64,000 nucleotides of DNA from a virus. Location: positions 1-64,000 of the IMG/VR virus record IMGVR_UViG_3300034107_000725; one strand, 5' to 3'. The position numbers and the translations under genes are program-made. The notes beneath the pieces are model-generated. The model saw only the letters and a program-made list of their open reading frames with translations, searched no databases and was not told the origin of the DNA. Below, in pieces: positions 53,984-58,476 of the stretch; the first letter of the stretch is position 1, and every line of letters starts with the position of its first letter.

Positions 53984-54009
53984 CCCAGGAGGGAACGCCA
54001 TAATGCCAC
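53984..54009 (+). repeat. 26-bp direct repeat copy 1 (RBS plus start)
   Basis: cccaggagggaacgccataatgccac; 25/26 identical to 54875-54900. Confidence 0.9.
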
Positions 54010-56594
54010 CGCCAACCAAATATGGACCAAACACTCCGGCAAGTCCAGTTGCACCGGCTCCCACACCAGTCGCACCCATTCCGGCAAGTCCAGTTGCACC
54101 AGCAGCCACACGTGTTGCACCAGCAGCCACACCAGTCGCACCCATTCAGCACCGGCCAGCCATAGTACGTAGCACGCCGCAAGGTCTGGTTGCTTCGTTG
54201 GCGGATCAACTGCCTTTAGGGTATAAAAATGAAGCTCAGGCGGCGGCCTCCGCTTATCGGAAGCTCAACCCAAAATTAAATTGGCCTTCGGATATCTCAC
54301 ATCGGGCACTCAATCGGCAAGTTCCGGTGAATTACGTGTCAGAGTTTGATGATCCAAGTACTAACGGACAATACCAACCGGCCACAGATCAAATATCTTT
54401 GCGGGCAGGGCTTAAGCCAAAAGCCATGGGAACGACATTGCAGCACGAGTTGACACACGCAACGCAGTTCCAGGGCAATATACCTGTACAACGCAGTTCG
54501 ACTACGCAGCCTATGCTTCAAAAGACGATGGAGAGCCAAAACTACGATCCTGCTACGGCTAGATCGTATTCAAGCTATATGACGGATCCAACAGAACAAG
54601 AGGCTTTCTTGGCGGGGCTTAAGCGAAATCACTATGTACAAACGGGTAAGCATATACGAACTAAAGATGAAGCTCGAAAAATGCTAATGGACTTGCCAAA
54701 CACACCCGAAAATAAGGATCAAGAGGCGTCTATGGGTACTTTGCTTAGGGCTCCGCAACTAAACAATACACCCGAAGGTGCAGCGGCCAAGGCTCAGTGG
54801 ATTGAGTCGCTCAGTAAAATGCTACCCGGACTGGTCCAAGGTAACTCACTAACTCTCGGCAAGACCGCAAACTTCCCAGGAGGGAACGCCATGATGCCAC
54901 AAGCAGCTCCAAACGGTTTCAACCCAAATGTCTTTAGTCACAACAACTTCTCCGGGACTTTCCCGATGAGTCAGGCTTTGCCCGCTAAACCGAACCCACT
55001 GTCCGCAGCACCACAAATGGGTGGTGTGAAAGCTGATGCCAATGGCATTCAGGCTGCGATGGCCAAGCGAGGCTCGCAGGATAACAGTGCTCCTCGTTGT
55101 TCATCCGCTGGTGAGAGTAAGGGTGTTGGTTACAAGATGGATGATGAAGGTCACACGACTGGTGGCAGTGCGTTTAGCACACTTGACAAATACATGAAGA
55201 AAGCTGGGCTTAATAGCTTTCAAACTCAGTTTTTCGGGCGTCTAATTCAGTCTGGCATGAATGAAGCTCAGCTACATCATGCGGTTAAACAAGCTCAAAT
55301 TCAGTTTGGCGAAAAGGTTGCCAGCGAACTGGTTGACGGATTGGAAAAGCTGGCGGTTACACCTTTCTCAGGTGCGGGTCGTCTGGCAAGAGAATTTGGC
55401 ACTGATTTGCTTAACACAGGAACGCGATATGCCGGTAATGCGATTAACGGTATTGGCGGGTTTGCCAGAGGTTTAGTGGGCAAGAAAGTTGCTCCCGGAG
55501 CGTCCGAGATAGGAGCCATGGCACAGCAGGCAGGACGTAAAGCAAAAACGCTCGGTCGTAAGTATGTGATAAATCAGGACGTGGGTACAGGCATGGCAAC
55601 CGGTGCCTTTAACCCGTACACCAGTACGCTATACGACGAACAGGGAAATCTGGACTTAGCCACTACGGCTCGCAATGCAGCCCTTGGTGGATTGGCTGGC
55701 GGTGTTGTGAAGCAAACTCCACTAAGGTGGAACGCAAGACAACGCCAGGAGCAGCTGATGGCAGGCAGCGGTATTGGGCTTGCTGGAGGACATTTGGCAA
55801 ACGCGTTAGGTGCCGATGTTGATCCGACGCGAGCGGCTCAAATTGGAGGTGCTGCGGGTTTACTTCCTCGCAACATCAGAGGCAGGAACATGTCAAAAGT
55901 TATGCCAAAATTTGATCCTACGGACATCGGTGCCCAGGCAAAGAATGTAAGGGCAGCTGGCCGTTACGCTCGTGACGCAGCTAAAAACGCTCCGGAAGGT
56001 AGTTTGGCAAAGGCTACAATGATTGGCGGCGGTTTGGGGCTGGGCGTAGGTATGCCTATGGCAACTTATGCAGGGCTTTCCCAGATGGGGACCAACGCAG
56101 GAAATGCAGCCATGCAGCAGCCTGAAGTGCAATCAACTCTAAAAAGGTTAAATGCTACACAACAACAGGTGCAGCAAGTTGCAGACAAGGTAAACCGGTT
56201 TGCCGCCCCGTTTCAGGATGACAAAGGCCAGTTCGATCTCATGGGCGGGCTTAGACGCCAGCTCGGTTTAGGCGAAGGCGGCACTGGGTTGGGTGCTGTG
56301 GGTGACTACTTGCGACAAAATCCACAGCTGGCCTCTGCCGGTTTGTTGAGCTTGTTGGGCATGGGTACTGGTTACATGGCTGGCGGTGGGCGTGGTGCGG
56401 CTTTGGGCGGCCTGTCTGCTCCTTTGCTAAACTACTTGGTGCAGTCACAACTTGGCGGAAATACCGCACCTGACATAGCTGGTACAAACCAAGCCGCAGC
56501 TCCTGCGGCTTCAGCAACTCCCGGCGTAGGTGAGTTTGACAGGAATCGGGAGAATGAAATCGTACAGCAACAACTCGGCTATAGTCCTAACTAA
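54003..56594 (+). CDS. Large modular putative virion protein: Pro/Ala repeats, HExxH zincin-like domain, Gly/Ala-rich C-terminal region
   Basis: PASPVAPA repeats; LQHELTHATQ plus downstream EQEA; KTAN/KKAG/EKLA junctions; in-frame internal start near 54891. Confidence 0.75.
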   Translation: MPPPTKYGPNTPASPVAPAPTPVAPIPASPVAPAATRVAPAATPVAPIQHRPAIVRSTPQGLVASLADQLPLGYKNEAQAAASAYRKLNPKLNWPSDISHRALNRQVPVNYVSEFDDPSTNGQYQPATDQISLRAGLKPKAMGTTLQHELTHATQFQGNIPVQRSSTTQPMLQKTMESQNYDPATARSYSSYMTDPTEQEAFLAGLKRNHYVQTGKHIRTKDEARKMLMDLPNTPENKDQEASMGTLLRAPQLNNTPEGAAAKAQWIESLSKMLPGLVQGNSLTLGKTANFPGGNAMMPQAAPNGFNPNVFSHNNFSGTFPMSQALPAKPNPLSAAPQMGGVKADANGIQAAMAKRGSQDNSAPRCSSAGESKGVGYKMDDEGHTTGGSAFSTLDKYMKKAGLNSFQTQFFGRLIQSGMNEAQLHHAVKQAQIQFGEKVASELVDGLEKLAVTPFSGAGRLAREFGTDLLNTGTRYAGNAINGIGGFARGLVGKKVAPGASEIGAMAQQAGRKAKTLGRKYVINQDVGTGMATGAFNPYTSTLYDEQGNLDLATTARNAALGGLAGGVVKQTPLRWNARQRQEQLMAGSGIGLAGGHLANALGADVDPTRAAQIGGAAGLLPRNIRGRNMSKVMPKFDPTDIGAQAKNVRAAGRYARDAAKNAPEGSLAKATMIGGGLGLGVGMPMATYAGLSQMGTNAGNAAMQQPEVQSTLKRLNATQQQVQQVADKVNRFAAPFQDDKGQFDLMGGLRRQLGLGEGGTGLGAVGDYLRQNPQLASAGLLSLLGMGTGYMAGGGRGAALGGLSAPLLNYLVQSQLGGNTAPDIAGTNQAAAPAASATPGVGEFDRNRENEIVQQQLGYSPN
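54035..54147 (+). repeat. Imperfect tandem repeats encoding a Pro/Ala linker
   Basis: tccggcaagtccagttgcacc at 54035 and 54080; ccacaccagtcgcacccattc at 54061 and 54127. Confidence 0.85.
54875..54900 (+). repeat. 26-bp direct repeat copy 2 (internal RBS plus in-frame ATG ATG)
   Basis: cccaggagggaacgccatgatgccac. Confidence 0.9.
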
Positions 56595-56617: not shown

Positions 56618-57295
56618 ATGCTTGAGCTACCAACCGTCACAGCAATCTGCTACGAAGGCAGTCGGCTGAGTCCTGACCAGATTAAGTACTATGAATTAAT
56701 GCTGCGGCATGTGAATAGGACTGTCCGGTTCAACTCTATCAAGTTTTTTGCTCACACTCCCCACCAGTTTGAAGGAGTTGAGCAGATTGCCGTGCCGCAT
56801 ACTAGCCGAGCCGACTACAGTCAATGGTGCATTCATAACTTGGGAACATACTTTGACACGGAACACGTGTTAATTTTTCAGTGGGATGGTTATCCGCTGA
56901 ACCCACACCTGTGGACTGATGAATTTTTACAGTATGACTACATTGGAGCCCCTTGGTCCTGGAAGCAGCACCATAGATTTCGCCGATCAAACCCAGAGCA
57001 CCTGGTTGGTAACGGGGGTTTCAGTCTTCGCAGCCGTAAGCTATATCAAGAGCTTTTAAAGCACCCTGTAAGCAAAGAAAACGAGGATCTCTACATCTGC
57101 TGCGATTTGCGACCAAAACTAGAGGCCAACGGAGTCAAGTTTGCACCGATGGACGTAGCCAAGCGGTTTGCCGTTGAGGTGCAGCTTTCCCCTGAGCACA
57201 CGATAACAAATACTTTTGGGTTTCACGGTGGGCATAAAAGCTGGGTCGAAGCCATACCATCATACCCACAGTATGCGAACAACTTCCTGCCGTGA
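56618..57295 (+). CDS. DUF5672-family glycosyltransferase-like protein
   Basis: IFQWDG, YDYIGAPW, VGNGGFSLRS, NED, FAVE, FGFH. Confidence 0.85.
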   Translation: MLELPTVTAICYEGSRLSPDQIKYYELMLRHVNRTVRFNSIKFFAHTPHQFEGVEQIAVPHTSRADYSQWCIHNLGTYFDTEHVLIFQWDGYPLNPHLWTDEFLQYDYIGAPWSWKQHHRFRRSNPEHLVGNGGFSLRSRKLYQELLKHPVSKENEDLYICCDLRPKLEANGVKFAPMDVAKRFAVEVQLSPEHTITNTFGFHGGHKSWVEAIPSYPQYANNFLP

Positions 57296-57360
57296 GTAAA
57301 ATCGCAGCTTATTTCAGATTTCATGGTGGACATGGAAGTCGGATTGAGGCTATAAATACG

Positions 57361-57660
57361 TAGTCGCAATACACGGGAAGAGTCTTCCACTATGACCTTG
57401 ACCTGCGAAGATGAGTGAGTAGCCAGCTGGGGTGAGGCGGGTCTCTCAATTACCGGACTACACCAGCTGGTAGGTTGTTTGTCTTATCTTCAGGACAAAT
57501 AACAGGACGTTGCCGGAGGGAACACCTCGCTAACGACGTCTCGGGCAACTGTAACGTGATGGATCCATGGAAGTTTTGACTCCTCCGGGTCTCCTTTTGC
57601 TTCCCCGTCACAAACTTGGAGCCGCTATCGCTCGCAGACGATATGCTTCGACTGAGGTAA
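57361..57660 (+). ncRNA. Candidate structured non-coding RNA (unassigned)
   Basis: ~400-nt ORF-free gap between convergent genes with six adjacent stems; G-U pairs favour the + strand. Confidence 0.55.
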
Positions 57661-57691
57661 AGCCCAAAAGGCCGATGCCAGGTGTGGTTGC

Positions 57692-58414
57692 CTAGCTCAT
57701 CTTTTCTTCTTCAGCTGCAGCTTCGGCTGCAGCTTTTTCTTTTAAGCGGTGCTTGTGAGCAACACCCAGTAGACCCGATAGCCCTGAGTATCTTGTGCCT
57801 TCGAACTGACGGGCGTTGACGCAAACAAACCAGTCCACGATGACGGATTCCAGGCTGGTCTGACGCAAGTGCCGGGATGGCTCGATCACTTCAGTGACAA
57901 CCACGCGATCGCCGTAGTGTTCCATAAACTTACGTTGAGTATCGAGGTTGTCTGTGGCGAGAAAGAGCTTCTCGTCGGGACGCAGTTCAGCATCAAGCCA
58001 CTCAAAGAACTCTTCGTCACGCGTGACACCATCGTGGCCCGTTGCCGGTATCTTGTCGGTTCTACGAGCATGGATAGCCAGATAAGACGGAGTCAGGCGA
58101 CTCATCACTTCATCGATACGAGCCTGAGTGCGAGGTCGGGGAATCATATCGTGGAAGTAATAGTTGCTAAACGGATCGTAAGGAGGAAGAAAATCGTAGC
58201 CTTTGTAGTGTGGTTTTTTTGTATCGTCGGTGAACTCTACCCCAGGAATTGGTTCTAAGTGATCCAGATAGCGTCCAGGACAGTCGGCGTTGGGAACCCA
58301 GCAGACGACCAGGATGTTATTGTTGGCTCGGGAGCGTTGCAGGAAGCTGAAAAGAACACGTATACGGTCGGCAAAACCTGTAGAGGTCTGGACCTTGAAT
58401 CGTTGACCTGCCAT
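57692..58414 (-). CDS. GT-B O-fucosyltransferase-like glycosyltransferase
   Basis: STGFADRIR, LAIHARRTD, LFLATDN, VIVDWFVC..A..F.GT..SGLS; AGGAG RBS favours start 58414. Confidence 0.7.
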   Translation of the reverse strand: MAGQRFKVQTSTGFADRIRVLFSFLQRSRANNNILVVCWVPNADCPGRYLDHLEPIPGVEFTDDTKKPHYKGYDFLPPYDPFSNYYFHDMIPRPRTQARIDEVMSRLTPSYLAIHARRTDKIPATGHDGVTRDEEFFEWLDAELRPDEKLFLATDNLDTQRKFMEHYGDRVVVTEVIEPSRHLRQTSLESVIVDWFVCVNARQFEGTRYSGLSGLLGVAHKHRLKEKAAAEAAAEEEKMS

Positions 58415-58448
58415 GATATCGGGGTCTCCTGTGACATGAATAGGGTGT

Positions 58449-58476
58449 ATTATAGTCCAGCTCAAGTCTTCTGCAA
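58449..58476 (-). promoter_or_regulatory. Possible sigma70-like promoter for the minus-strand gene
   Basis: TATAAT (58449-58454, - strand) with TTGCAG 16 bp upstream. Confidence 0.4.

Follow-up and report, generated by a model that had tools for sequence, protein, structure and literature searches.

The window analysed here is a stretch of 64,000 nucleotides, the first 64 kb of an IMG/VR record of 193,990 bases (50% G+C, 94% complete according to CheckV), and derives from a phage lineage without any cultured relative, whose DNA polymerase has a best identity to any deposited phage of about 25%. A crude gene call on the full record gave 95% coding sequence, with 197 of the 216 genes on the + strand. 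Against this background, two convergent genes, encoding a DUF5672 protein and an O-FucT-like protein, are separated by an ORF-free gap (Table 1). By the same gene call, no true gap in the window is larger, as an earlier note on this DNA had stated, and the gap ranks among the top three by size in the record. The record contains two other ORF-free gaps outside the window, each of about 400 nt (71825-72239 and 193261-193657), and neither showed similarity to the RNA described below in short-word BLAST comparisons.

The earlier note had proposed that the gap contains an unassigned, highly structured phage non-coding RNA on the + strand, and covariation in five clades of homologues bears this out. 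From these sequence comparisons, we conclude that the gap holds a genuine folded, + strand non-coding RNA with a conserved core of about 300 nt, and that this conserved structured RNA very probably founds a new family. Its sequence is single-copy in the phage genome.

Table 1. Coordinates of the genes, signals and RNA elements at the locus (numbering of the window).
Feature	Position	Strand	Remarks
Upstream neighbour, DUF5672 gene	56618-57295	+	
ORF-free gap	57296-57691		396 nt, between convergent genes
Putative sigma-70-like promoter	57327..57357	+	TGGACA 57327-57332, 18-nt spacer, TATAAAT 57351-57357
P1, clade-specific 5′ hairpin domain	57359-57366 with 57399-57407; apical hairpin 57376-57388	+	predicted by RNAalifold
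Conserved core	57407-57704	+	closing helix P2, five-way junction (P2-P6), nested four-way junction (P6-P9)
P2, closing helix	57407-57416 with 57695-57704	+	
P3, hairpin	57422-57431 with 57463-57471; apical 57438-57440 with 57453-57455	+	
P4, hairpin	57474-57504	+	length and sequence vary among clades
P5	57505-57541; P5a 57505-57512 with 57534-57541; P5b 57516-57519 with 57525-57528	+	A-rich loop in P5b
3′ domain	57543-57693	+	found by models R1/R2
P6, long-range helix	57543-57551 with 57685-57693, plus 57554-57555 with 57682-57683	+	encloses P7, P8 and P9
P7, three-part hairpin	57556-57562 with 57605-57611; 57569-57574 with 57599-57604; 57578-57582 with 57587-57591	+	
P8, hairpin	57616-57622 with 57645-57651; 57626-57631 with 57637-57643	+	
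P9, hairpin	57656-57659 with 57676-57679; 57662-57664 with 57670-57672	+	
Downstream neighbour, O-FucT-like gene	57692-58465	-	convergent; weak O-fucosyltransferase match
Intrinsic terminator	57713-57744	+	9-bp G+C-rich stem, UUCG loop, U-run

Fold and strand of the RNA

The earlier note had suggested a covariation check on collected homologues, and this check revealed abundant compensatory changes. On model-fitted alignments, which lean towards the structure and represent only about five or six independent lineages, 95.7% of the cells in the 3′ domain were paired and 30 of its 49 pairs had changed on both sides, as compared with 33-44% paired cells and 2-8 such pairs when the partners were slid by one to three columns. 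The 5′ half behaved likewise, with pairing in 90.9% of the cells and two-sided changes in 24 of 32 pairs. Overall, register-shifted controls gave 25-49% paired cells versus the 91-96% observed, and none of 500 shuffles matched the observed paired fraction or covariation score, so that compensatory changes exceed both the shuffled and the register-shifted controls, the behaviour by which we define a structured non-coding RNA. Alignments made with MAFFT only were discarded in favour of the model-guided ones, as they misaligned P7 and P4 between clades and generated spurious consensus helices.

The alignments contained 135 G.U cells versus 24 A.C cells, indicating that the RNA is read from the + strand and upholding the argument from G-U pairs by which the strand had originally been assigned. 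When the full gap was folded by energy, the + strand did only modestly better than its shuffles (z -1.8), and the - strand gained nothing over them (z +0.7). The signal was clearer for the window core (57405-57706; z -2.9), whose minimum-energy prediction coincides exactly with the comparative structure, and a divergent homologue from clade D (L051), folded independently, adopts the same architecture (z -2.6). RNAalifold, run on close homologues, predicted 118 pairs, including 12 in which both bases had changed in a compensatory manner, and exposed two long-range helices missing from the earlier note, one closing the core and the other closing the 3′ domain.

Several of the stems drawn in the earlier note correspond to helices supported by covariation, namely gccagctgg/ccagctggt to P3, gttgtttgtc/gacaaataac to P4 and ggagc..tatcg/cgata..gcttc to P8. 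The first helix of P3 was 98% paired, with four of its five pairs changed on both sides, as were all three pairs of its apical helix; the corresponding values for P4 were 84% and 8 of 10. The helix tagtcg/cgactg, put forward as possibly closing the structure, found no support, and the conserved closing helix is instead P2, present in 13 of 13 sequences tested with a sequence that differs clade by clade. In P7, 15 of 18 pairs had changed on both sides, and one of them appears as U-A, U.G or C-G among the near-identical sequences of the window's clade; the stem aagttttgac/gtca-c-aaactt was likewise unsupported, its place being taken by GUGAUGG/CCGUCAC, GGAAGU/GCUUCC and GACUC/GGGUC. The 3′ internal loop of P7 carries a pyrimidine stretch, CUCCUUU (57592-57598), which every clade conserves and which is similar to the anti-Shine-Dalgarno end of 16S rRNA. 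The inner helix of P9 changes from GCC/GGC to GAG/CUC in L014, amounting to two compensated pairs, and a single hairpin takes the place of P8 and P9 in clade E (L049 and L050).

P5a (GGACGUUG/CGACGUCU) was 98.9% paired, with six of eight pairs changed on both sides, despite an alignment fitted to a competing pairing, and P6 (GGGCAACUG/UGGUUGCCU) was 100% paired, with five of nine such pairs. The stem gttgcc/ggcaac with an inner gagg/cctc, also drawn in the earlier note, holds in part: the inner helix is P5b and acceptable, but the outer one, GUUGCC (57509-57514) with GGCAAC (57544-57549), would replace P5a and P6 and is the weaker alternative, with 3 of 10 pairs compensated. It is nevertheless kept in most clades, chiefly through wobble pairs, and may represent an alternative conformer of the RNA. 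Column complementarity was also used to look for further helices or pseudoknots and returned only one candidate kept in all clades, ACUUG (57613-57617) with CAGGU (57680-57684), which competes with the base of P8. Unpaired bases are conserved in the junctions and internal loops, and several hairpin loops are A-rich. In all, about 80 conserved pairs and two multi-helix junctions are kept across about 40-60% protein divergence.

The core is flanked by additional signals in the window's clade. On its 5′ side, P1 contains two compensated pairs (G-C to A-U and U-A to C-G) in the RNAalifold prediction and is not alignable in other clades; its apical hairpin, the ggaag/cttcc (57376-57388) of the earlier note, is present, with a hairpin of different sequence in its place in the sister sub-clade (L014 and L017). 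Further upstream, the hexamer TGGACA and the TATAAAT motif are invariant in L013, L014, L017 and L020, were found only in this clade and constitute a possible sigma-70-type promoter, which escaped a consensus promoter scan owing to an A at the final position of the -10 hexamer. The sequence TATAAATA at 57351 had been read as a T4-late-type promoter. It is indeed present, and invariant in the close clade, but it occurs only three times in the 193,990 bases (two copies on the + strand and one on the -) and is thus not a recurrent late-promoter motif; moreover, most homologues of the RNA leave no room for any promoter, which further weakens that reading. On the 3′ side, the intrinsic terminator, a strong one, is kept in close homologues, with one U-A to U.G change, and clade C also has a terminator after the RNA. 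About 17 codons at the end of the convergent O-FucT-like gene (57692-57744) overlap the 3′ strand of P2 and the terminator, so that one stretch serves as protein tail, RNA helix and terminator.

Homologues and genomic context

Proteins similar to the DUF5672 neighbour led to close homologues in metagenome contigs L013, L014/L015, L017, L020 and L047/L048, all with a gene order identical to that of the window and a gap of equal length. The window and L013 share 97.5% identity across the gap, as compared with 85-93% for the flanking genes, which we count as selection on the RNA. BLASTN comparisons of the gap, and of the 6 kb around it, with deposited phages yielded zero matches, as did a BLASTN-type search with the gap in ten related IMG/VR records picked by DNA-polymerase similarity. 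Distant homologues were reached only with covariance models built from the window, R1 and the rebuilt R2 covering the 3′ domain and R3 the 5′ half. R1 produced full-length matches (E about 1e-14) in four of the ten related records, and R2, with filters off, gave weaker matches in two further records and in contigs fetched via the large neighbouring protein; R3 detected the 5′ half in four of the five clades. About 16 distinct sequences were recovered from lake and marine metagenomes, placing the family in at least five clades (A-E) of large (150-200 kb) uncultured phages.

Searches with short patterns were unproductive: an exact 17-mer had no match among viral contigs, the three matches to a degenerate 19-mer were all due to chance and in G+C-rich coding DNA, and three of the four genome matches to a two-block pattern were likewise chance matches. 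A clade-B copy (L058/L059, G012:C47:3012-3169) is carried by a 79-kb contig that had been binned with a MAG of the Gemmataceae (Planctomycetota), which may be taken as a weak hint of the host of this phage lineage. A search of 150 other Gemmataceae genomes did not recover the RNA, so that none of these carries it as a chromosomal RNA of the host.

In every genome examined, the RNA adjoins the 3′ side, and lies on the same strand, of a gene homologous to that at 54003-56594, the exception to direct adjacency being the window's clade, where the DUF5672 gene intervenes between the large gene and the RNA. This homologue is the only conserved neighbour, and the partnership with the 7630/8496 proteins suggested in the earlier note is without support. 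The DUF5672 and O-FucT-like genes were also discarded as partners of the RNA, being absent from the five relatives searched; on comparison of these gene orders, the DUF5672 gene beside the RNA is a clade-specific insertion. DUF5672 genes are widespread, with over 4000 homologues, and the distant ones in L018/L019 occur in an unrelated phage context, with no gap, no RNA and an unrelated large protein upstream.

Homologues of the 54003-56594 product (among them L027:4759-7830, L028:4640-7648, L039:6409-8091 and P0121-P0178) comprise 560-1230 residues and combine a conserved domain of about 140 residues with variable N-terminal modules. The conserved domain is mostly helical (residues about 315-451 in the window's protein), and the proteins have Gly-rich tails; the N-terminal module is a zincin-like DUF6782 in the window and NUDIX, SNF2, Peptidase_M91 or ferritin elsewhere. 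An AlphaFold2 model of residues 300-500 was too poor for use (mean pLDDT 54).

The genes downstream of the RNA vary, encoding PhyH, glycosyltransferase-like, sulfotransferase, cytidylyltransferase-like and deacetylase proteins, all of the glycan-tailoring kind. In clades B, D and E, the RNA occupies the entire intergenic space, starting 0-37 nt past the stop codon of the gene before it and followed, 23-37 nt past its end, by the next start codon. Clade D has no terminator, and G008 lacks a clear ribosome-binding site.

Known families, coding potential and possible function

The earlier note had also considered that homologues might reveal a small protein-coding gene. Neither strand has a frame that stays open throughout the clades, close homologues differ by 1-nt indels, and L014 lacks the ATG of a 42-codon ORF, the only sizeable one on the + strand. 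Open frames of 40-100 codons are scattered on both strands in single genomes, with the frames differing at homologous positions, and the peptide similarities, which occur in several frames of either strand, are what nucleotide conservation by itself would produce. No open frame stays in register across the homologues, arguing that the region is not a small protein-coding gene.

A search of the whole window against Rfam 15 (4227 models) at the gathering threshold returned no matches; the set included RNase P, tmRNA, SRP, 6S, GOLLD, ROOL, OLE, HEARO and raiA, as well as riboswitches, small ribozymes, group I/II introns and pRNA. Relaxing the threshold to E up to 10 on positions 57200-57800 gave only chance-level matches of about 6-16 bits at the edges, and seven divergent homologous loci, searched with E up to 5, gave none within the RNA. 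ARAGORN found no tRNA or tmRNA in the window. These results agree with the earlier judgement, made by eye, that the RNA does not match tRNA, tmRNA, RNase P or SRP, and we found no description of it in the literature. A self-splicing group I or II intron was rejected as well: the upstream gene has its own stop codon, and the downstream families vary by clade, that of the window being convergent.

GOLLD and ROOL, large structured phage and prophage RNAs that form RNA-only cages (bioRxiv 10.1101/2024.12.08.627333), are the nearest analogues in kind to the gap RNA. Like them, it is phage-encoded, large for a bacterial-type non-coding RNA, multi-junction and defined by covariation, with A-rich hairpin loops and no known partner or function. 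Unlike them, it measures about 300 nt, as opposed to about 580 and over 800, has a fixed place after one protein gene rather than near tRNA genes, of which the window has none, and did not match their Rfam models even with E up to 10. Multi-junction riboswitches (lysine, cobalamin and FMN) share with it a closing helix around a multi-way junction, conserved junction bases, a terminator directly after the closing helix, here in two clades, and a nearby gene start, here in three; however, no Rfam riboswitch matches the gap RNA, and the window copy has no downstream gene on its own strand. RNase P RNA, tmRNA and group I/II introns are comparable in length and helix count, but gave no covariance-model or ARAGORN match, and the gap RNA does not interrupt any reading frame. 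The phi29-type pRNA is a phage-encoded structured non-coding RNA that acts with phage proteins; the analogy is functional only. pRNA is about 120-174 nt long and of different architecture, and no Rfam match was obtained. The lack of any model match, the smaller size, the distance from tRNA genes and the fixed protein-gene neighbour place the gap RNA outside any described family.

As to function, we favour with middling confidence, from comparative evidence, a stand-alone functional RNA over a riboswitch-like leader. The RNA would itself act as a stable folded molecule, whether protein-bound, catalytic or self-assembling. In most clades, it would be cut from the operon transcript at the A/U-rich stretches flanking P2; in the window's clade, genes were inserted on both sides, and the RNA there seems to have turned into a small, separate transcription unit about 380 nt long, extending from the promoter-like TGGACA-18-TATAAAT to the terminator. 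We favour this reading because the core remains constant while the downstream gene families change between clades, and because the RNA ends at a terminator in two clades (the window's and C). Likewise, in the window's clade it is bracketed by the conserved promoter-like hexamers and the terminator, and the next gene is convergent, leaving nothing on the RNA's strand to regulate. RNAs with tertiary folds typically show numerous conserved bases at their junctions and A-rich loops, and the presence of both here points in the same direction. On the other hand, the short spacing to the next start codon in clades B, D and E also matches a cis-acting leader, and the constant place after one gene family would fit a role as a 3′-UTR as well.

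A leader, acting in cis as a riboswitch-like sensor for the downstream glycan-tailoring genes, would have the core as an aptamer for a metabolite, such as a donor of sulfate or of sugar, and would exert control through the terminator in clades A and C and, in B, D and E, through the conserved CUCCUU loop masking the ribosome-binding site. The close start codons in these three clades and the identity of the genes that follow agree with such control, as do the intrinsic terminator immediately behind the closing helix in the window and clade C, a riboswitch-like layout, and the conservation of the anti-Shine-Dalgarno-like CUCCUU in an internal loop; the alternative GUUGCC/GGCAAC pairing could be the switch. 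We nevertheless consider a leader unlikely. Control in cis would require transcribing 770 nt antisense in the window, where the next gene is on the opposite strand; no antiterminator pairing was found, and the energetically best structure of the whole gap contains both the core helices and the terminator, which lies outside the separately folded stretch 57405-57706. In addition, clade D has no terminator to use, G008 offers no clear ribosome-binding site for masking, the gene family that follows the RNA varies, and at 300 nt the core would be a large aptamer. The invariable position after the homologues of 54003-56594, on their strand and right behind their stop codon in B, D and E, might instead denote a 3′-end or operon-punctuation element for the large gene, that is, a folded block against 3′ exonucleases or for processing between operon halves, with no function of its own. 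This we find quite improbable, since a simple hairpin would be enough for protection, yet the RNA keeps its numerous pairs, two junctions and conserved unpaired bases, and the DUF5672 gene and the promoter-like site separate it from the large gene in the window's clade. The close clade has CAGCTG palindromes in P3 and the terminator, and these, together with the scattered open frames of single genomes, would suit an element acting at the DNA level (an origin, a packaging site or a hairpin recombination hotspot) or a decayed or small protein-coding gene. Such readings deserve very little credence in view of the strand asymmetry of wobble pairs and the poor folding of the - strand, the indels and lack of a frame shared across clades, and the single copy of the RNA in the genome.

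Implications of a new phage RNA family

Large structured RNAs with well-supported folds but no known function are rare, and RNase P RNA, riboswitches, GOLLD, ROOL and OLE each opened new biochemistry. The present case shows that visual inspection of raw sequence can point to a genuine RNA family missed by annotation pipelines and Rfam, and models R1-R3 can seed a family-wide search. With about 300 nt, the RNA is compact enough for chemical probing and cryo-EM, and it has a fixed genomic partner to test. We tentatively entertain the possibility that it represents a new class of large functional phage RNA, either a ribozyme or RNA-protein machine working with the injected or packaged multi-module protein of the gene immediately before it, or a riboswitch class that would sense a metabolite used in glycan synthesis and control the phage's glycan-tailoring genes. 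If either were true, this uncultured phage lineage, which possibly infects Planctomycetota, would have its first functional RNA.
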